NCBI RefSeq assembly: GCF_056746865.1
Contig: NZ_CM163382.1
Length of the DNA: 64,000 bases
Direction: 5' to 3' (one strand)
Shown: positions 19,734 through 56,584 of the stretch, piece by piece
Layout of the letters: each line of letters opens with the position of its first letter
Numbering within the stretch: position 1 is the stretch's first letter
Made by a program: the position numbers and the translations under genes
The notes under the pieces: model-generated
The model's database searches: none
The model's input: the letters and a program-made list of their open reading frames with translations, nothing else
Told to the model about the DNA's origin: nothing

Positions 19734-20312
19734 ATGGATCTCAATACACTCATCTCACAATATGGTTATGCCGCGCTGGTGATCGGTAGCCTGGCGGAAG
19801 GTGAAACCGTGACTTTGCTGGGAGGCGTTGCGGCACATCAGGGGCTATTAAAGTTCCCGCTGGTGGTACTTTCTGTGGCGCTTGGCGGCATGATTGGCGA
19901 CCAGGTGCTTTATCTGTGCGGGCGGCGCTTTGGCGGCAAGCTATTACGCCGTTTCTCGAAACATCAGGATAAAATTGAGCGGGCGCAGAAACTTATCCAA
20001 CGCCATCCGTATCTGTTTGTCATTGGTACGCGTTTTATGTATGGCTTTAGGGTGATTGGCCCGACGCTGATTGGTGCCAGCCAGCTGCCGCCGAAAATCT
20101 TTCTGCCACTGAATATCCTTGGCGCATTTGCCTGGGCGTTGATTTTTACCACTATCGGTTACGCTGGTGGTCAGGTGATTGCGCCGTGGTTGCACAATCT
20201 CGACCAGCATTTGAAGCACTGGGTCTGGTTGATTCTGGTCGTGGTTCTGGTGGTAGGCGTGCGCTGGTGGCTGAAACGGCGCGGGAAGAAAAAGCCGGAT
20301 AATCAGGCATAA
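19734..20312 (+). CDS. yohD: DedA-family inner membrane protein
   Basis: 192-aa ORF from MDLNTLISQYGYAALVIGSLAEGE (typical DedA N-terminus). Confidence 0.75.
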   Translation: MDLNTLISQYGYAALVIGSLAEGETVTLLGGVAAHQGLLKFPLVVLSVALGGMIGDQVLYLCGRRFGGKLLRRFSKHQDKIERAQKLIQRHPYLFVIGTRFMYGFRVIGPTLIGASQLPPKIFLPLNILGAFAWALIFTTIGYAGGQVIAPWLHNLDQHLKHWVWLILVVVLVVGVRWWLKRRGKKKPDNQA

Positions 20313-20335
20313 AGCAGTTGCCACAGATAAGCATT

Positions 20336-20400
20336 CACGCCACATCCGGCACCGGATGTTCCATGCCTGATGCGACGCTGGCGTGTCTTATCTGGCCTAA
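20336..20400. repeat. REP (repetitive extragenic palindrome) cluster between convergent yohD and yohF
   Basis: GCCTGATGCGACGCTGGCGTGTCTTATCTGGCC plus a second CCGGATG-type palindrome. Confidence 0.7.
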
Positions 20401-20430
20401 CCCAATGAAATAACCACGCACCTCACTGCG

Positions 20431-25766: not shown

Positions 25767-27762
<1,996 letters not shown>

Positions 27763-45562: not shown

Positions 45563-46651
45563 ATGAACAACCGGGAGAAGGAGATCCTTGCAATTTTACG
45601 GCGTAACCCGCTGATTCAGCAGAACGAAATTGCTGATATGCTGCAAATCAGCCGTTCGCGCGTTGCGGCGCATATTATGGATTTAATGCGCAAAGGTCGA
45701 ATTAAAGGCAAAGGTTACATTCTCACCGAGCAGGAATACTGCGTAGTGGTGGGGACAATCAATATGGATATTCGCGGGATGGCGGATATCCGTTACCCGC
45801 AAGCGGCTTCTCATCCCGGTACCATTAATTGCTCGGCAGGCGGCGTTGGACGCAATATCGCCCACAATCTGGCGCTGTTAGGCCGCGACGTCCATTTGCT
45901 TTCAGTGATTGGCGATGACTTTTATGGCGAAATGCTCCTGGAAGAAACGCGCCGCGCCGGCGTGAATGTCTCCGGCTGCGTTCGTTTACATGGTCAAAGC
46001 ACATCGACGTATCTGGCAATTGCCAATCGAGACGATCAAACCGTGCTGGCGATTAACGATACCCATCTGCTGGATCAGTTGACACCGCAACTACTGAACG
46101 GGTCGCGCGATTTACTTCGTCATGCGGGCGTGGTACTGGCTGATTGCAACCTGACAGCCGAGGCGCTGGAGTGGGTCTTTACCCTCGCTGATGAGATCCC
46201 GGTGTTTGTCGATACCGTTTCAGAATTCAAAGCGGGCAAAATCAAACACTGGCTGGCGCATATTCACACCCTGAAACCCACTTTACCGGAGCTGGAAATT
46301 TTATGGGGACAGGCGATCACCAGCGATGCTGACCGTAATGCCGCAGTGAATGCGTTGCATCAGCAAGGCGTTCAGCAACTGTTTGTTTATTTGCCCGATG
46401 AGTCAGTTTATTGCAGCGAAAAGGATGGAGAGCAATTTTTGCTGACCGCGCCAGCGCATACGACAGTAGACAGTTTTGGTGCTGACGATGGTTTTATGGC
46501 GGGCCTGGTATATAGCTTTCTGGAGGGAAACAATTTCCGTGACAGCGCCCGTTTTGCGATGGCCTGCGCGGCAATTTCACGCGCCAGCGGCAGCTTAAAC
46601 AACCCTACCCTGTCTGCCGATAACGCGCTGTCATTAGTGCCAATGGTGTAA
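45563..46651 (+). CDS. yeiI: PfkB-family carbohydrate/nucleoside kinase with N-terminal HTH domain
   Basis: 362-aa ORF 2 bp after nfo; N-terminal HTH (ILRRNPLIQQNEIADMLQISRSRVAAHI) followed by a PfkB kinase fold; paralogous to psuK. Confidence 0.8.
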   Translation: MNNREKEILAILRRNPLIQQNEIADMLQISRSRVAAHIMDLMRKGRIKGKGYILTEQEYCVVVGTINMDIRGMADIRYPQAASHPGTINCSAGGVGRNIAHNLALLGRDVHLLSVIGDDFYGEMLLEETRRAGVNVSGCVRLHGQSTSTYLAIANRDDQTVLAINDTHLLDQLTPQLLNGSRDLLRHAGVVLADCNLTAEALEWVFTLADEIPVFVDTVSEFKAGKIKHWLAHIHTLKPTLPELEILWGQAITSDADRNAAVNALHQQGVQQLFVYLPDESVYCSEKDGEQFLLTAPAHTTVDSFGADDGFMAGLVYSFLEGNNFRDSARFAMACAAISRASGSLNNPTLSADNALSLVPMV

Positions 46652-46654
46652 CAA

Positions 46655-46752
46655 TGTTGCCGGATGCGACGCTTAACGCGTCTTATCCGGCCTACAAATC
46701 AGGCAATTTCAGCAAGTAAATGTAGGCCTGATAAGCTTGCGCATCAGGCAAT
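46655..46752. repeat. REP pair (BIME-like) between convergent yeiI and nupX
   Basis: TTGCCGGATGCGACGCTTAACGCGTCTTATCCGGCCTAC and GTAGGCCTGATAAGCTTGCGCATCAGGCA. Confidence 0.8.
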
Positions 46753-46757
46753 GACAC

Positions 46758-48008
46758 TCAAGCTAAACCAATAAAGAACCCGGCAATGGTCGCACTCATC
46801 AAGTTGGAAAGCGTCGCCGCCGCCAGCGCGCGTAAACCAAGCTGGGCGATTTCCGGCGCACGGTGTGGCGCAACCGCAGAAAATGCGCCAACCACCACCC
46901 CGATAGAACCAAAGTTAGCGAAACCGCACAACGCGAAAGAAATAATCGCCACGGTTTTAGCATCCAGAGTGCCAGCTGTTTGCAGATAAGGTGAGAAATT
47001 GAGGTAAGCGACAAATTCATTTATTGCCAGCTTCTGTCCAATCAAACTCCCGGCAAGATTCGCATCACTCCAGTCAACCCCCATCACCCATGCCAGTGGA
47101 GCCAACAGGTAACCTAAAATGGACTCCAGCGAGGCATGTTCAAAACCAAACCAGCCGCCAACGCCGCCGATAATACCGTTAATCAACGCAATTATTGCAA
47201 CAAATGCCATCACCACTGTCGCCACACCTGCGGCGATTTTCAGCCCGGTCATTGCCCCTGTAGCGGCGGCTTCAATAATGCTTTTTGGCGGTGTTTCGGT
47301 GAAAGAGAGGTTATTAAAGGAAACCTGCGAAGATTCCGTAGCCGGGCTTAACAGGCGGGCAAACAAGATCCCGCCGGGGATCGCCATTAACGATGCCGCT
47401 AGCAGATATTCCACAGGCACGCCCAGTGCGGCGTAACCAATCATTGTCGAACCAGCAATCGAGGCCATGCCACTACAAATAGCCGTAAATAATTCATTGC
47501 GATTCAGACGATCGATAAAGGGTTTGACGATTGCCGGAATTTCGTTTTGCCCGAGGAAAATGGTAGTGACCGCGACGAATGACTCAATCTTGCTGATATT
47601 CAATGCTTTCTGGAATATACCGCCGAGAATGCGAATTAAGATCCCCATCACACCGATGTAGTAGAGAATACTCACCAGTGCTGTAACGAAGATAATTGCC
47701 GGTAATACCCTGAAACCAAAGATAAATCCAGCGCCATCAAATAAGGTGTCCATTTTCGGTCCGACCAGAGAACCAAAGATAAATGCGCTACCCGCGTCGC
47801 TGTACGCCATCACTTTATGCACGCCAAAAGCGACTTTTTCAGCGACCCAACGCCCTGGCGGTAACCAAAGCATAATGCCGCCAATCACGACCTGTAACAC
47901 TAACGCCGCGCCAACGGTACGCAGGCTGATCTTCTTCTTGTTTACTGACAGCAAAAACGCAATTGCCAGCAATACCACCATTCCCAGAACACTTCTCATG
48001 ACATCCAT
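46758..48008 (-). CDS. nupX: NupC-family nucleoside permease
   Basis: 416-aa multi-TM ORF; paralog of the ORF at 51258..52508. Confidence 0.85.
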   Translation of the reverse strand: MDVMRSVLGMVVLLAIAFLLSVNKKKISLRTVGAALVLQVVIGGIMLWLPPGRWVAEKVAFGVHKVMAYSDAGSAFIFGSLVGPKMDTLFDGAGFIFGFRVLPAIIFVTALVSILYYIGVMGILIRILGGIFQKALNISKIESFVAVTTIFLGQNEIPAIVKPFIDRLNRNELFTAICSGMASIAGSTMIGYAALGVPVEYLLAASLMAIPGGILFARLLSPATESSQVSFNNLSFTETPPKSIIEAAATGAMTGLKIAAGVATVVMAFVAIIALINGIIGGVGGWFGFEHASLESILGYLLAPLAWVMGVDWSDANLAGSLIGQKLAINEFVAYLNFSPYLQTAGTLDAKTVAIISFALCGFANFGSIGVVVGAFSAVAPHRAPEIAQLGLRALAAATLSNLMSATIAGFFIGLA

Positions 48009-49563: not shown

Positions 49564-50362
49564 CACTGTTGACGTCCACTTCGACGTACATCTCCTGGGT
49601 TTTAATGCCATCAGGGTTAATCAGATAACCGATGCAGGTGGCGTCATGCACCGGGCCGCCAGCCAGGCCGTAGTTTTCGAACTGCGTTTTTAGAGTGAAA
49701 TTCATGATGTCGCTGAACAGCTCTCCGGCGGGGCCGCCTACCCTTTCCATCCGGGCAATCACGTCCGGGGTGCAAACAGTCTGGTTGGTGAGATCGAGGC
49801 CCATCATCACCAACGGAACGCCGGAGGTGAACACCACGCGTGCGGCTTCCGGGTCGGCAAAGATGTTGAACTCGGCAGATGGGGTGAAGTTGCCTGTACC
49901 GTAAGCGCCGCCCATTAGCACAATTTCACGGATTTTCGGCAGGATCGCGGGTTGCATACGCATTGCCACCGCGATATTTGAAAGCGGACCAACCGGCACC
50001 AGAGTGATATCACCATCGCTTGCCATCAGGGTATCAATGATATATTTCACCGCATGAGTGCTTTCTGCCTGGCGGGTCAGCGGCCCGAATACCGGGCCAT
50101 CAAGTCCGGTTTCACCGTGAATATTATCGGCAACGATTTGTTGACGCATAATGGGCTGTGGCATCCCCGCATAAACCGGAACATTAATCTCCAGTTTCTG
50201 GCAAACATTCAGGCCATTAATTAATGTTTTATCAAGCGTCTGATTACCCGCCACAATGGTGATGCCTAATAAATCAATCACCGGATGTTTCGCGGCCATC
50301 ATTATGGCAATAGCATCATCATGACCCGGATCACAATCCAGAATAATTTTTCTCTTTTCCAT
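49564..50362 (-). pseudogene. rihB: 5' part of pyrimidine-specific ribonucleoside hydrolase gene (N-terminal DCDPGHDD motif), truncated by the IS; the ORF runs on into IS sequence
   Basis: ORF 49328..50362 begins [22 protein letters not shown]... (nucleoside hydrolase signature) and switches to unrelated IS-derived residues after ...VDVNS. Confidence 0.85.
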
Positions 50363-50530
50363 TGTTTATTTCCTCTGTTTCCAGTTGCGTTATTTTTTCT
50401 ACAGCAAAGAAAATTCGACCGGGCCGATGATTGAATCTTAACAACAGCGTAAGTATGCTAAATATGAGAAATCTCATAGCGGATAAACATCGTGAAAGAA
50501 ATCCACAATAATGATCTTAAGCAGCAATTG

Positions 50531-51190
50531 ATGAGTGAATCCGCGTTTAAGGATTGCTTTTCAACGGATGTTTCAGCCGATACGCGGCTGTTTCATTTTT
50601 TAGCGCGTGACTACATAGTGCAGGAAGGGCAACAGCCGTCCTGGCTGTTTTATCTGACGCGAGGCCGCGCCAGGCTTTACGCCACGCTTGCTAATGGTCG
50701 CGTGTCGCTGATCGATTTCTTTGCCGCTCCCTGTTTTATTGGCGAGATTGAGTTAATCGACAAAGACCATGAACCGCGTGCGGTGCAGGCTATTGAAGAG
50801 TGTTGGTGCCTTGCGCTCCCTATGAAACATTACCGTCCACTGTTATTAAACGACACCCTATTTTTACGAAAACTTTGCGTCACCTTAAGTCATAAAAATT
50901 ATCGTAATATTGTTTCTTTAACTCAGAATCAATCATTTCCGTTAGTGAATCGCCTGGCAGCTTTTATATTACTCTCACAAGAAGGTGATCTTTATCACGA
51001 AAAGCATACGCAAGCGGCAGAGTATTTAGGCGTTTCTTATCGACATCTTTTATATGTTCTCGCGCAATTCATTCACGACGGTTTATTAATTAAAAGCAAG
51101 AAAGGATATCTAATTAAAAACAGAAAGCAGTTGTCAGGACTGGCGCTGGAGATGGACCCGGAGAATAAATTCTCCGGGATGATGCAGTAA
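50531..51190 (+). CDS. yeiL: Crp/Fnr-family transcriptional regulator
   Basis: ORF with cNMP-binding-like domain and C-terminal HTH; start assigned at [10 protein letters not shown] (an upstream in-frame ATG at 50492 is also possible). Confidence 0.75.
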
Positions 51191-51204
51191 AAAATAATCT
51201 GCAA

Positions 51205-51252
51205 TAGCGCGATTGCCGGATGCAACGCTTAATAAGGCGTACATCCGGCAAT
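51205..51252. repeat. REP element between convergent yeiL and psuT
   Basis: GATTGCCGGATGCAACGCTTAATAAGGCGTACATCCGGCAATG. Confidence 0.75.
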
Positions 51253-51257
51253 GAAAC

Positions 51258-52508
51258 TCAAGCTAAACCAATAAAGAACCCGGCAATGGTCGCGCTCATC
51301 AGGTTGGAAAGCGTTGCTGCTGCCAGCGCCCGTAAACCAAGCTGGGCGATTTCCGGCGCGCGTTTTGGCGAAATAGCCGAAAATGCGCCAACGACAACAC
51401 CGATAGAACCAAAGTTCGCAAAACCACAAAGCGCAAAGGAGATAATCGCCACGGTTTTCACTTCCAGCGTGCCGCCCGTTTGCAGGTATGGGGAGAAACT
51501 CAGGTAAGCGACAAATTCGTTAATCGCCAGTTTCTGCCCAATCAGGCTACCCGCAAGGTTGGCATCACTCCAGTCCACACCCATGATCCACGCCAGCGGT
51601 GCCAGCACATAGCCAAAAATACTTTCCAGAGAGGCATTGGCGAAACCAAACCAGCCGCCAATTCCGCCGATAATGCCGTTGATCAGCGCAATAATTGCGA
51701 CAAACGCCATTACCACCGTCGCTACACCAGCGGCGATTTTCAGCCCGGTCATCGCACCGCTCGCCGCTGCTTCGATAAAGCTTTTTGGCGGCGTTTCGCT
51801 GAACGACAGATTTTCAAATGTGACCTGCGAAGGCTCGGTTGCCGGGCTAAGAATACGTGCAAACAAAATACCGCCAGGGATCGCCATCAGCGATGCCGCT
51901 AACAGGTAGTCAATTGGTACGCCCATTCCGGCATAACCAATCATCATCGAACCAGCAATGGACGCCATCCCGCTACAAATAGCCGTAAACAACTCGTTGC
52001 GATTCATGCGATCGATAAACGGTTTAACGATCGCCGGGATCTCATTTTGCCCGAGGAAAATAGTAGTAACCGCAACAAAAGATTCGATTTTGCTGATGTT
52101 GAGGGCTTTCTGGAAAATGCTGCCAAGGATGCGAATCAGCAGCCCCATCACGCCAATGTAGTACAGCAGACTGATGAGCGCAGTAACGAAGATAATCGCC
52201 GGAAGTACGCGAAAGGCGAAGATAAAGCCCGCGCCATCAAACAGGACATCCATTTTCGGCCCGACCAATGAACCAAAAATAAAGGCGCTACCGGCATCAC
52301 TGTAAGACATCACTTTATGAACGCCTAATGCCGCCTGTTCTACTGCCCATTTTCCCGGTGGGAAGTAGAGCATGATGCCACCAATAGCGATTTGCAGCAG
52401 CAGTGCGGCTCCAACCGTGCGCAAACTGATGCCCTTTTTATTCACTGACAACAGAAATGCTATTGCCAGTAACACCACCATCCCCACAACACTTCTCATT
52501 ATATCCAT
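51258..52508 (-). CDS. psuT: NupC-family nucleoside (pseudouridine) transporter
   Basis: 416-aa ORF, paralog of nupX; upstream of psuG/psuK on the same strand. Confidence 0.85.
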   Translation of the reverse strand: MDIMRSVVGMVVLLAIAFLLSVNKKGISLRTVGAALLLQIAIGGIMLYFPPGKWAVEQAALGVHKVMSYSDAGSAFIFGSLVGPKMDVLFDGAGFIFAFRVLPAIIFVTALISLLYYIGVMGLLIRILGSIFQKALNISKIESFVAVTTIFLGQNEIPAIVKPFIDRMNRNELFTAICSGMASIAGSMMIGYAGMGVPIDYLLAASLMAIPGGILFARILSPATEPSQVTFENLSFSETPPKSFIEAAASGAMTGLKIAAGVATVVMAFVAIIALINGIIGGIGGWFGFANASLESIFGYVLAPLAWIMGVDWSDANLAGSLIGQKLAINEFVAYLSFSPYLQTGGTLEVKTVAIISFALCGFANFGSIGVVVGAFSAISPKRAPEIAQLGLRALAAATLSNLMSATIAGFFIGLA

Positions 52509-52601
52509 AATGATTTTCCCTTCATGCCAGTAAACCCGGCGTCAGCGCCAGGTTTTGGTATGCTTGATGAGTACGGGCGACGGCTTTCTGCCCGTCAGAA
52601 A

Positions 52602-53540
52602 TTAACCCGCGAGACGCTGGTATTCTTTGGCAATTTCGCTCGCCAGAATGGCGTTGTTGAACACCAGTTGGATGTTGGATTTCAGGCTGTCACCGCCAGT
52701 CAGTTCAGCAACACGAGCCAGCAGGAACGGTGTGCTTTCTTTACCAATAACGCCCTGCTCTTCGGCTTCGGCGACGGCTTGATCTATGGCTGCATTGATA
52801 GATTCCTCCGGCATCGCAAACTGTTCCGGGATCGGATTCGCCACCACCAGGCCACCGTTCAGACCGCTTTGCCATTTCACCGCCATTGCACGAGCGATTT
52901 CCGTGGCACTATCAAGGCGAATACTGACTTCAAACGGGCTGGTGCGGCAGAAAAACGCAGGCAGCGCTTTGGTCTGATAGCCAATTAACGGCACACCGAA
53001 GGTTTCTAAATACTCAGTGGTTAATCCTAAATCGAGAATAGATTTCGCCCCGGCACAAACAACGGTGACATTAGTATTTGCCAGTTCTTGCAAATCGGCA
53101 GAAATATCGAAGGTATGTTCCGCCCCGCGATGCACACCACCAATTCCCCCTGTGGCAAATACTTTAATTCCGGCAAGCGCCGCAATAATCATCGTTGAAG
53201 CAACGGTAGTTGCGCCATTTTTTCCGGCGGCAACAACAAAAGGTAAATCGCGACGACTAACTTTGGTCACGTTATGCCCTTCACTACCCAGCAATTCAAT
53301 TTCTTCTTTGCTTAAACCCACTTTCATCACGCCGCCAATAATGGCGATAGTGGCAGGTACAGCGCCCTGTTTACGAATAGTTTCTTCAACTTCAATTGCG
53401 GTCTGGGCATTTTGTGGGAACGGCATCCCGTGAGAAATAATGGTCGATTCCAGCGCCACAACCGGTTTTTTGTTTTTTAAAGCGTCCTGCACTTCCGGGG
53501 AAATTTGTAATAATTCAGGGGAAATTTTTAATTCAGACAT
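52602..53540 (-). CDS. psuG: pseudouridine-5'-phosphate glycosidase
   Basis: 312-aa ORF; overlaps psuK by 13 nt. Confidence 0.85.
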   Translation of the reverse strand: MSELKISPELLQISPEVQDALKNKKPVVALESTIISHGMPFPQNAQTAIEVEETIRKQGAVPATIAIIGGVMKVGLSKEEIELLGSEGHNVTKVSRRDLPFVVAAGKNGATTVASTMIIAALAGIKVFATGGIGGVHRGAEHTFDISADLQELANTNVTVVCAGAKSILDLGLTTEYLETFGVPLIGYQTKALPAFFCRTSPFEVSIRLDSATEIARAMAVKWQSGLNGGLVVANPIPEQFAMPEESINAAIDQAVAEAEEQGVIGKESTPFLLARVAELTGGDSLKSNIQLVFNNAILASEIAKEYQRLAG

Positions 53541-54469
53541 TCTGCGTTCTCCACTAACGATATAACGTTGGCAATCGATAAATCGGGGTTATTGGTGTAT
53601 TCACAGGAGAGCGCCATTGACGAACATCCCTGTGCGAAACGAACAGATTCGGCAAACGGCATTCCGTCTACCCAACACGAAGCAAGTCCCGCCATCATGG
53701 CATCGCCCGCTCCGGTAACATTAATGACATTGGTTTTGATCGGCGCAGACCAACCACTTTCACCGCTGATATCACTGTAATAAACGCCGTCGCCGCCCAT
53801 GCTCATTACCAGTCGGTTCAGGCCATGTTGATGGAACCAGGCAGCAACTTTTGCCACATCTTCACGCCCTGACAAAGCAATCCCACTCAAGGTTTCCGCT
53901 TCAAGGCGGTTTGGCTTCAGGGTGTGGATCTGATTTAGACGGTCACGCACTTTGACACATTTCCATGCCGAAACCGGATCGACAAATACAGGTACATTGG
54001 CGGCATTATCCAGAATCCATGCCAGTGCCTCTTCACTGATATTACAGTCCGCGACAATGACCTTTGCCCTTTGAATAAATTCACGGTGCTGTGCGAGATA
54101 TTCAGCTGTAATAGCGTTGCTAATATTCATGTCATTTATAGCAACCAGCATTTCACCGGTATTATCGAGTAATGATAAATAGCTCGACGTGTTTTCTCCC
54201 GGCACAATCAGGCATTTATCGACATAAACACCAGATTGATTGGTTTGCGTTAGCAACGATTGACCATAAAAATCACTGCCTACTGCGCTCAGTAGCCAGG
54301 ATTTATTCCCCAGCAACGCCAGGTTTTGTGCAATATTGCGCCCGACTCCACCAGGCGTAAATTTTATTTTACCTGGATTTGAATCCGCATAATTTAATGA
54401 TTCATGTGAATATCCGGCGACATCAATATTCGCCGAACCTATAATTACGACATAATCCTTTTCGCGCAT
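53528..54469 (-). CDS. psuK: pseudouridine kinase (PfkB family)
   Basis: 313-aa ORF with PfkB motifs (GGVGRN, ...GAGDAMMAG). Confidence 0.85.
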   Translation of the reverse strand: MREKDYVVIIGSANIDVAGYSHESLNYADSNPGKIKFTPGGVGRNIAQNLALLGNKSWLLSAVGSDFYGQSLLTQTNQSGVYVDKCLIVPGENTSSYLSLLDNTGEMLVAINDMNISNAITAEYLAQHREFIQRAKVIVADCNISEEALAWILDNAANVPVFVDPVSAWKCVKVRDRLNQIHTLKPNRLEAETLSGIALSGREDVAKVAAWFHQHGLNRLVMSMGGDGVYYSDISGESGWSAPIKTNVINVTGAGDAMMAGLASCWVDGMPFAESVRFAQGCSSMALSCEYTNNPDLSIANVISLVENAECLN

Positions 54470-54715
54470 AGCACGTCCTCTGGTAAAAAATTACCAACCC
54501 TGTCAATCCACAAGAATATTGATACTGCAAAGACGGTTTAAACATGTGTTCATATTTAAACATGTGCTCATAGTATGCATGTTTTACGTAAAGTAAATTA
54601 CCGCCAGAGAGGCAAAATGGGCAGATTTGAGCAGGCTCACAAAACGCGATTAAATGCCTGAATTATAAAAACGGGGAATTTGTGACGGGATGCACAGAAC
54701 AGGAACAATAAAAAA

Positions 54716-54735
54716 GGGCAGAAATTAATCTGCCC
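54716..54735 (-). terminator. Putative intrinsic terminator downstream of the fruBKA operon
   Basis: GGGCAG-AAATTAAT-CTGCCC hairpin followed by a U6 tract on the minus strand. Confidence 0.55.
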
Positions 54736-54892
54736 TTGAGGAAATAACCTTAGTGTTTGATGAAGGTTTCAGGTTTCTACTAAAAGATAAAACCATTTAA
54801 ATTCATAAAATTACATTCACAAACCGGTCATTCTCTTTGCGCGCATCAAATGTTACAGGGCAGGAAATTTCTGCCCTGTAACACACCTTTTA

Positions 54893-56584
54893 TTACGCTG
54901 CTTTCGCTACTGCGTCCACTTCCGGACGTTTCAGGAAGGCATAGGCCAGACCCGCCACCAGCGTACCGGCAATAATGGCTACCAGGTAACCCAGTACCGG
55001 CGTAATAGCGCCAGGGATCAGCAGAACAAACAGACCACCGTGCGGTGCCATCAGTTTCGCACCAATCGCCATTGAGATTGCGCCAGTCAGCGCCCCACCC
55101 ACGATACAGCACGGCAGCACACGCATCGGATCACGAGCAGCAAACGGAATTGCACCTTCCGAAATGAAGCACAGTCCCAATACCAGAGCGGCTTTGCCAC
55201 CTTCCTGCTGCGCTTTGTCGAATTTGCGACGCGCCACCATTGTTGCCAGGCCCATTGCCAGCGGTGGCACCATACCTGCCGCCATAATCGCCGCCATCGG
55301 GCCATAGGTTTGAGTACTCAGCAGACCCACACCGAATGCGTACGCTGCTTTGTTTACCGGACCGCCCATGTCAGTACACATCATGCCACCGAGGATCGCC
55401 CCCAGCAGAACCGCATTCGCAGTCCCCATGGTCTGCAGCCAGTGAGTCAACCCTTCGAGAATGCCAGCAACCGGTTTACCGATCAGGTAGATCATCGCCA
55501 GACCGACCACCAGACTGGAAATTAGCGGAATGATCAGAATCGGTTTCAGCGCCTCCATACTCTGTGGCAGTTTCAATTGCGTACTGATTAACTTCGCAAT
55601 GTAACCAGCCAGGAAGCCCGCAATAATACCGCCAATGAAGCCAGAACCAGTGCTGACCGCCAGCATACCGCCAATCAGACCCGGCGTGAGACCCGGACGA
55701 TCGGCAATGGAAAAGGCAATATAACCTGCCAGTACCGGCACCATCAACGCAAAGGCTGAACCACCACCAATCTGCATCAGCGCCGCAGCCAACGTACCCG
55801 GCTCTTTAAACGCTTCGATACCAAAAGCAAAAGAAAGCGCGATACACAGACCACCTGCAACGACCATCGGCAGCATGTAAGAGACGCCAGTCAGCAAGTG
55901 ACGGTAAGCGCCTGCACTCTCTTTCTTACCTTCAGTGGTCGCTGTTTGAGTTTTGCCCGCCGGTTCATACGGCGTTGCTTCAGCAACCGCATTATCCAGT
56001 TCCTGCGCGGTTTTCTTCAGCGCCAGACCGGTAGAGGTACGATACATCGGTTTACCAGCAAATTTCGCCAGATCCACTTCGATATCTGCCGCCACAATCA
56101 CCAGATCCGCTGCTGCGACTTCTTCGGGAGTGATTGCATTACCCGCGCCAACAGAACCACGGGTTTCAACTTTCACCCACCAGCCACGTTTTTTCGCTTC
56201 GGTTTCAATGGCTTCAGCCGCCATAAAGGTGTGTGCTACGCCAGTCGGGCAAGCAGTCACCGCAACTACGCGTTTCGGACCGCTGGCGGCAACCGGTGCT
56301 GTCGCAGCGACCGGCGCAGTGTAAGGTTTCGCATGGCCTTTGGCTTCACTCAGGAACAGCTCAGGGTGCGCAACTGCCCGGGAAATATCGCCCAGCCAGA
56401 CATTTTTACCGTTCAGCGCGCTGTCGTTCGGGATGGAATCACCGAGAACAATCGCCATTTCAGCGTCGTTCGGATTGTCGATGATTTCCAGTTTTGCTTT
56501 TCGCGCCGCCGCGCCCAGCAGGGTCTTCGCCATATAGGCGCGTGCCTGACCGAGATTAGCGTCAATAATCAGCAGCGTTTTCAT
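54893..56584 (-). CDS. fruA: fructose PTS EIIB'BC component
   Basis: 563-aa ORF, large membrane EIIC domain; fruBKA order. Confidence 0.95.
   Translation of the reverse strand: MKTLLIIDANLGQARAYMAKTLLGAAARKAKLEIIDNPNDAEMAIVLGDSIPNDSALNGKNVWLGDISRAVAHPELFLSEAKGHAKPYTAPVAATAPVAASGPKRVVAVTACPTGVAHTFMAAEAIETEAKKRGWWVKVETRGSVGAGNAITPEEVAAADLVIVAADIEVDLAKFAGKPMYRTSTGLALKKTAQELDNAVAEATPYEPAGKTQTATTEGKKESAGAYRHLLTGVSYMLPMVVAGGLCIALSFAFGIEAFKEPGTLAAALMQIGGGSAFALMVPVLAGYIAFSIADRPGLTPGLIGGMLAVSTGSGFIGGIIAGFLAGYIAKLISTQLKLPQSMEALKPILIIPLISSLVVGLAMIYLIGKPVAGILEGLTHWLQTMGTANAVLLGAILGGMMCTDMGGPVNKAAYAFGVGLLSTQTYGPMAAIMAAGMVPPLAMGLATMVARRKFDKAQQEGGKAALVLGLCFISEGAIPFAARDPMRVLPCCIVGGALTGAISMAIGAKLMAPHGGLFVLLIPGAITPVLGYLVAIIAGTLVAGLAYAFLKRPEVDAVAKAA

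Follow-up and report, generated by a model that had tools for sequence, protein, structure and literature searches.

The two GGGCAG/CTGCCC hairpins that lie between psuK and fruA in this E. coli sequence are probably paralogues of one Rho-independent fruA terminator, which would have been split by an insertion that also duplicated its hairpin, so that the distal copy terminates transcription and the proximal copy is a relic. The feature is an ordinary intrinsic terminator together with a disarmed duplicate: since the U-tract is found on the far copy only, the near copy reads as a leftover from the insertion. Throughout, we refer to the whole stretch of DNA that was analysed, 64 kb in length, as the window; it is 97.5% identical to K-12 and 100% identical to strain 118UI.

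Two copies of one hairpin downstream of fruA

Both psuK (53528-54469) and fruA (54893-56584) are encoded on the minus strand, and the gap between them is 423 bp long, as an earlier, sequence-only reading had reported. Following the minus strand from the double stop codon of fruA (TAA TAA, 54890-54895; the sequence TAATAAAA is invariant here in 11 of 11 window-type Escherichia sequences), one encounters the proximal hairpin (54851-54883, UGUUACAGGGCAG-AAAUUUC-CUGCCCUGUAACA), then a 113-nt AT-rich spacer (54738-54850), then the distal hairpin (54714-54737, AAGGGCAGA-UUAAUU-UCUGCCCUU), which is the putative stem-loop of the fruBKA terminator, and finally the U-tract of that terminator (UUUUAUUG, 54706-54713), which follows the 9-bp stem. 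The two hairpins are found where the earlier reading had placed them, at 54716-54735 and 54853-54881, and they do have the GGGCAG/CTGCCC core in common; a perfect match of 12 nt (AGGGCAGAAATT / AATTTCTGCCCT) is common to both.

This likeness is not expected by chance. When the entire 64-kb window is searched for the pattern GGGCAG-N{4,12}-CTGCCC, exactly two matches are found, against an expectation of 0.04, and these matches are the two hairpins. None of 100 shuffles of the window contained at least two matches. A search of positions 53000-56000 against Rfam returned no relevant match at any threshold, and none of the small open reading frames in the psuK-fruA gap is conserved.

A third GGGCAGATT, at 54619-54627, was considered and excluded from the feature: it is not a hairpin, and it sits in the conserved psuK upstream region, beside a CRP-like site (TGTGA-N6-TCAAA, at about 54627-54642 on the minus strand). 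The same region holds a tandem 18-mer, TTTAAACATGTG(T/C)TCATA, whose two repeats occupy 54537-54572 on the minus strand, just downstream of a promoter-like TTTACT-16-TACTAT pair (54570-54642 region). The 18-mer is invariant across Escherichia, and related sequences are found upstream of psuK in Citrobacter, Klebsiella and Kosakonia. Together, the 18-mer and the CRP-like site look like a putative operator and CRP site of the pseudouridine operon.

The distal hairpin has the form of an intrinsic terminator, for which we looked for a GC-rich stem of at least 5 bp and a loop of 3-8 nt. Its core at 54716-54735 is extended to a full stem AAGGGCAGA/TCTGCCCTT at 54714-54737, with 9 bp (five to six of them G-C pairs) and a 6-nt loop, and its folding energy is -15.5 kcal/mol (z = -5.2 compared to shuffles). 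Directly 3' of the GGGCAG/CUGCCC core on the minus strand comes the U-rich tract UUUUUUAUUG, and this tail has TTTTTTATTG in common with the single terminators of Salmonella diarizonae and Klebsiella spallanzanii.

The conservation of the distal copy was assessed in an alignment of 11 window-type sequences: eight from E. coli (including the window), one from a divergent genome labelled as E. coli, and one each from E. whittamii and from Escherichia sp. E1V33. In all 11 sequences the distal stem is fully paired, with eight of the nine pairs invariant, and the loop varies; the T6 run after the stem is invariant. In E1V33 one G-C pair has changed to G-U, which keeps the pairing only in RNA of the fruA sense. 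The retention of pairing, the variation of the loop and the conservation of the U6 run are, taken together, the classic signature of a working terminator. A terminator consensus scan likewise calls only this hairpin on the minus strand. Its d-score, computed in the manner of d'Aubenton-Carafa (1990), is +18.9 in the fruA sense and -60 in the antisense direction.

We infer from these sequence features that it is at the distal copy that fruBKA transcription terminates in vivo; the 3' end of the fruBKA transcript would then most likely fall at around 54705-54712, some 185 nt from the stop codon. The supplements of the Term-seq and SMRT-Cappable-seq studies that we consulted (Adams 2021, TERMITe 2025, SMRT-Cappable-seq) hold no rows for fruA or psuK 3' ends, and a literature search found no mention of a fruA terminator or a fruA 3' UTR, and no named sRNA.

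The proximal hairpin begins about 10 nt past the fruA stop codon, and its core lies 19 nt from the first base of that codon, which is the ancestral offset (see below). The hairpin at 54853-54881 can be extended to 54851-54883, giving a GC-rich stem of 13-14 bp with a 7-nt loop and a folding energy of about -22 to -24 kcal/mol (z = -5.9 compared to shuffles). What comes after this stem on the minus strand of the window is (CA)UUUGAUG, which is not a U-rich tract; the earlier claim that the distal hairpin alone is followed by one is thus borne out. In most of the E. coli strains sampled the proximal tail is CAUUGGAUG, which is poorer still. Among the 11 aligned sequences the outer three pairs of the stem break without compensation, and the 8-bp core is conserved across Escherichia with an identity of 0.91. 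In K-12 the proximal stem contains a G-U wobble, with the U in the 3' arm, which on the other strand would be an A.C mismatch; in strain 28RC1 the core contains one mismatch. The identity of the proximal core exceeds that of the spacer, which suggests that the proximal copy is not entirely neutral. It is best read as a U-less relic of the ancestral terminator hairpin.

The sequence-only reading had suggested that the pair might be tandem terminators. This description fits the distal copy, with its paired stem, invariant U-tract and positive d-score, but it does not fit the proximal copy, which lacks a U-tract and, in the fruA sense, reaches a d-score of -3.6 with its full stem and of -39 with the core alone. 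One could still suppose that the proximal copy is a partial, non-canonical terminator with a short UUU tail, for which the distal copy serves as a fail-safe. The long and stable proximal stem is indeed followed by UUUGAUG in both the window allele and K-12, the full-stem d-score of the window allele falls just under the threshold, and the core is conserved across Escherichia species. But the consensus scan does not call the proximal hairpin on the minus strand, most of the sampled E. coli strains combine the CAUUGGAUG tail with mismatches in the outer stem, and at several other loci, discussed below, the corresponding left-hand hairpin also lacks a T-run. We therefore regard a partially terminating proximal copy as rather unlikely.

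A single terminator in other genera

The origin of the two hairpins can be traced by examining the same locus in related bacteria. We took fruA loci from 80 species-representative genomes and inspected the sequence after the stop codon; 75 of these loci come from outside Escherichia. Exactly one hairpin of the GGGCAG type, followed by a T-run, occurs after fruA in 37 of the 75, at an offset of 18-47 nt from the stop codon (18-31 nt in all but one case). This single-copy set includes Citrobacter, Klebsiella, Salmonella, some Enterobacter, Atlantibacter, Pseudescherichia and one Buttiauxella. Most often the sequence reads GGGCAGAGATTTCTCTGCCC and then a T-run, which is to say, a canonical intrinsic terminator. 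The single hairpin and its T-run are present regardless of which gene lies downstream; in genomes with psuK next to fruA, for instance those of C. amalonaticus, C. sedlakii, K. oxytoca and K. michiganensis, it is the conserved psuK upstream region that the T-run adjoins. One record, titled Chryseobacterium sp. 18061 (L076), contains an enterobacterial fruA (91% amino-acid identity) next to an enterobacterial downstream gene; that assembly is therefore probably mislabelled or contaminated.

Within Escherichia, two hairpin copies are found in six of the seven fruA loci from other genomes. The double hairpin is found in the window, K-12, E. whittamii, Escherichia sp. E1V33, E. albertii and B2-type E. 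coli. In each pair, the copy at offset 18-19 has no T-run, and the copy at +159 or +191 has one. All six of the copies that we compared are 2-4 edits from the commonest single-copy hairpin. Given one copy in these 37 loci of other genera and two in most Escherichia loci, we conclude that both are paralogues of one ancestral fruBKA terminator. Of the two explanations in the earlier reading, then, the small duplicated repeat is the one that stands for both hairpins, each being a copy of the terminator hairpin found after fruA in other Enterobacteriaceae.

The exception among the seven loci is Escherichia sp. MOD1-EC7003 (L004, 3101-3400), in which a deletion extends from the middle of the spacer into psuG, removing the distal terminator and psuK. 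As a result, fruA is left with the U-less proximal hairpin alone.

The flanks of the distal copy show which of the two hairpins has kept the ancestral downstream junction. The Escherichia distal copy retains the ancestral flank on its psuK side, and it is the positional orthologue of the single terminator that lies beside the psuK upstream region in Citrobacter and Klebsiella. On its other side, its 5' flank ATTTCCTCAA recurs without a change as the 5' flank of the single Citrobacter sedlakii terminator. That identity is not predicted by a simple target duplication of the hairpin alone. A test for a duplication reaching into the 5' flanks was not significant (summed p = 0.12).

Variation among the genera also bears on whether the hairpins are maintained as RNA or as DNA. 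One might propose that a dimeric regulator uses the palindromes as operators, and that they are conserved as DNA rather than as RNA structure; the outer GGGCAG/CTGCCC is indeed unusually constant across genera. The inner stem pairs, however, covary between genera (AG/CT, GT/AC, CC/GG), and both the length and the sequence of the loop vary. Moreover, the observed changes include G-U wobbles (in the K-12 proximal copy, the E1V33 distal copy and a Citrobacter locus, L010), which are compatible only with pairing in fruA-sense RNA, and the position just after a stop codon, with a T-run following, is the classic layout of a terminator. An operator role is therefore hardly credible.

Orientation, too, can be examined at this point. 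In Salmonella and several other genera the single terminator is preceded by an A-run and followed by a T-run, which raises the idea that a bidirectional terminator has been divided in two, such that the proximal copy, read on the plus strand and followed by CACCUUUUAUUA, stops antisense transcription from the psuK side while the distal copy stops fruA-sense transcription. The U-run would be supplied by the complement of the invariant TAATAAAA, and the consensus scan does call the proximal hairpin, albeit as a weak terminator-like candidate, on the plus strand and there only. But this U-run begins 4 nt past the stem, and the antisense d-score of the proximal copy is -40; there is no promoter-like site on the plus strand in the gap; the K-12 allele would have an A.C mismatch in plus-strand RNA; and the second haplotype described below has no A-run upstream of its proximal copy. 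Such a division of labour is thus highly improbable.

The spacer, its two haplotypes and BIME-1 elements

Of the whole 3' region, the spacer is the part that has diverged most: its mean pairwise identity across the 11 sequences is 0.69, compared with 0.91-0.96 for the hairpins, and its sole short conserved block is UCAUCAAA. Covariation within the Escherichia hairpins is weak, and the support there comes from conservation and not from compensatory change. The spacer is single-copy, with one match per genome by blastn in 5426 E. coli genomes, and a profile built from it matches only this locus in Escherichia when run over approximately 1 Mb of enterobacterial and metagenomic DNA.

The spacer might also have a function of its own. 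In particular, spacer and distal terminator together could constitute a 3'UTR-derived, Hfq-binding sRNA that is cut from the fruBKA mRNA, with the proximal hairpin protecting the mRNA upstream. A 3' end made up of a hairpin and U6 is well suited to Hfq, the RNA body is rich in A and U, the 8-nt block UCAUCAAA is conserved across Escherichia, and the entry fruA.psuK.IGR occurs in 42 chimeric fragments in stationary-phase Hfq RIL-seq (PMC8175672 Table S1). The scores of that entry, however, are not those of an Hfq sRNA: the sRNA score is 0.001, there is a single partner, and the SIC score is -1 (PMC8175672), meaning that the fragment is always first in the chimera, which is target-like behaviour. 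The signal may equally stem from the psuK 5' UTR, where a U6 run is likewise present. The low conservation of the spacer, its replacement by another sequence in 22% of E. coli genomes, the lack of any Rfam match and the lack of a promoter-like site in our scan likewise weigh against an sRNA, which we judge to be very unlikely.

In the annotation of some RefSeq genomes, a hypothetical protein of 48 aa (WP_001300063.1) runs antisense to the spacer and the distal hairpin (plus strand, approximately 54654-54800 in the window; L213 301-447). This open reading frame is not intact in the window, which makes the annotation a probably spurious one.

At this locus, 5425 of 5426 E. coli genomes belong to one or the other of two mutually exclusive classes. 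The window-type gap is present in about 4231 (~78%). In the other 1194 (~22%), which include the type strain ATCC 11775 and ST131 strains, and in E. albertii as well, the 148 nt between the hairpin copies are a complete BIME-1 element, in the order A-like flank, Y REP, L motif with IHF site, Z1 REP and B-like flank. A nhmmer profile made from 29 independent BIME-1 copies spans these allelic spacers from end to end (E = 1e-48 for the B2 type and 1e-45 for E. albertii), and pieces of the element occur up to 12 times per genome. E. coli therefore has two forms of the fruA 3' UTR, which could affect the stability of fru mRNA or read-through into the pseudouridine operon.

The hairpin copies differ by 2-3 edits within a haplotype and by 3-5 edits across haplotypes; these numbers are small, and they fit either two separate duplication events or gene conversion. 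The haplotypes also differ beyond the gap. Positions 49564-54598 of the window (psuK-psuG-psuT-yeiL-rihB) are approximately 90% identical to the B2-type sequence (L001 614-5650), compared with 98.3% for fruA-fruB, which means that the fruA terminator is also the edge of a divergent psuKGT-yeiL-rihB block. The right boundary of that block falls in the last 27 nt of fruA, where the C-terminus of FruA reads PEVDAVAKAA in one form and ..TQIVEKNA in the other.

What the window-type spacer derives from was examined by local alignment. The spacer was compared with the BIME-type spacer, with the region downstream of the distal hairpin, with the last 200 nt of fruA in the window, and with the end of fruA plus flank in B2 and E. 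albertii, and every alignment was within the expectation from shuffles (z between -0.1 and 1.7). A tandem duplication of the region downstream of the distal hairpin was rejected as the spacer's origin, its alignment being at the level of shuffles. No homology with the psuK upstream region was detectable. The BIME-1 profile has no match in 54738-54850 at E <= 10, even with filters off, and a search of the spacer for the Y REP, allowing up to 3 mismatches, found none. That is, the window-type spacer does not have the BIME-1/RIB arrangement of Y and Z1 REPs inverted around an L/IHF motif, nor is it recognisable as any mobile or repeated element; only the allelic BIME-1 haplotype is.

We examined whether BIME-1 elements at other loci are bracketed in the same manner. 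Two copies, picked at random, are both flanked by hairpin repeats: the element between ridA and mgtA is bracketed by AATCCGGGCTATCATGCCCGGATT and ATCGGGGCTATCGTGCCCAGTTTATTCTTT (L083 1160-1370), and the element between fbaA and mscS by a 36-nt direct repeat consisting of a hairpin, a T-run and 12 more bases (L084 1150-1380). Scanning metagenomes for the Y-L junction then yielded 120 stretches (L085-L204), which reduce to 12 distinct loci. At five of the 12, a GC hairpin specific to the locus is repeated directly on the two sides of BIME-1, significantly so (z = 5-15 compared to shuffles), and one or two further loci have an apparent hairpin repeat by eye. Between the left copy of the hairpin and the Y REP lie 22-26 nt, and between Z1 and the right copy 28-31 nt; at several of these sites the left copy again has no T-run.

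At fbaA-mscS an unoccupied site is available for comparison. About 3700 E. coli genomes carry the filled site and about 1700 carry an allele that is 167 bp shorter; the one short allele that we inspected contains exactly one copy of the 36-nt segment (L211 130-260). Given the duplicated hairpins at other BIME-1 loci and this empty allele, the double hairpin is best read as the footprint of an insertion. The fruA locus itself has the features expected when an insertion duplicates its target: a direct repeat on either side of the insert, and a single copy of the hairpin in 37 other enterobacterial loci.

A more general reading is that duplication of a terminator hairpin is the regular footprint of the entry of BIME-1 (REP-IHF-REP) into the genome. 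We put this forward tentatively, and regard it, taken as a whole, as possible but doubtful. The element would insert at the 3' foot of a terminator hairpin, with a long and variable target duplication of 20-36 nt that covers the hairpin, and it would then be part of the transcription unit, preceded by a disarmed hairpin and followed by an intact terminator. The fruA terminator would have been hit twice, once in each haplotype lineage, and the AT-rich spacer of the window would be a remnant of such an insert, or a replacement for it. The bracketing of BIME-1 by hairpins suggests a testable rule for where and how these elements insert. The mechanism by which REPs and BIMEs spread has been stated to be unknown (PMC3333891). 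The literature that we consulted, to which the early papers on BIME and RIB (Gilson 1991; Boccard & Prentki 1993; Bachellier 1997) do not belong, contains no description of hairpin duplication around BIME-1, and the phenomenon may already be known.

Other elements of this kind were seen in passing. Elsewhere in the window, the BIME-1 profile finds REP/BIME-like elements at 46637-46772, 26637-26712 and 20306-20419; at 46657-46752 there are Y and Z REPs with a different, shorter linker. In E. coli EC93 the left part of the BIME-1 region between ridA and mgtA is replaced by IS621, of the IS110 family (L212 1-295), which fits the known preference of IS621 for REP sequences.

Proposed history and comparison with known systems

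The history that we consider probable for the window is as follows. An insertion that duplicated a hairpin of roughly 20 nt would have split the ancestral terminator. The proximal copy would have remained beside the stop codon and lost its U-tract, and the distal copy would have kept its U-tract and would still adjoin the psuK upstream region. RNA polymerase leaving fruA would terminate little or not at all at the proximal hairpin, would cross the 113-nt spacer, and would terminate at the distal hairpin and its U6 run, thereby shielding the psuK promoter region from read-through. If the proximal hairpin has a function, it would most probably be that of an exonuclease barrier once the AU-rich spacer has been trimmed. 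The series of fruA loci, from a single terminator to a U-less hairpin followed by an insert and a terminator, illustrates how a terminator may be split and partly disarmed by insertion.

Compared with intrinsic terminators in general, the distal copy is typical in its 9-bp GC-rich stem, its 6-nt loop, the adjoining U6 run, its position on the sense strand after the last gene of an operon, and the conservation of the stem while the loop is free to vary. It is atypical in its distance from the stop codon, 156 nt as against approximately 20 nt in other genera, and in having a U-less duplicate of its own hairpin upstream.

Stem-loops at mRNA 3' ends can act as stabilisers by forming a barrier to 3'-exonucleases, the REP of malE-malF being an example. 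The proximal hairpin possibly plays such a part, blocking 3'-to-5' exonucleases: like the REP-type stabilisers, it is a stable, U-less stem-loop that lies in transcribed 3' sequence, immediately past the end of a coding region. Unlike them, it is specific to its locus and derived from a terminator, with these two copies only in 64 kb and no dispersed family.

The resemblance to BIME-1 (also RIB or RIP), an element of transcription-unit 3' ends, lies in the allelic haplotype at fruA, which carries a full BIME-1 exactly between the hairpin copies, and in the layout of hairpin, element, and hairpin with T-run that fruA has in common with ridA-mgtA, fbaA-mscS and other loci. The window-type spacer differs in that it contains no REP, is single-copy and is AT-rich. 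As in target-site duplications, direct repeats bracket an insert, and relatives display the single-copy empty site. Duplications made by transposases, however, are typically of fixed length, between 2 and 14 bp, whereas the repeats at fruA and around BIME-1 are variable, from approximately 20 to 36 nt, and comprise a whole hairpin. Y1 transposases of the IS200/IS605 type, to which the REP-associated RAYTs are related, do not generate large duplications (PMC2817692).
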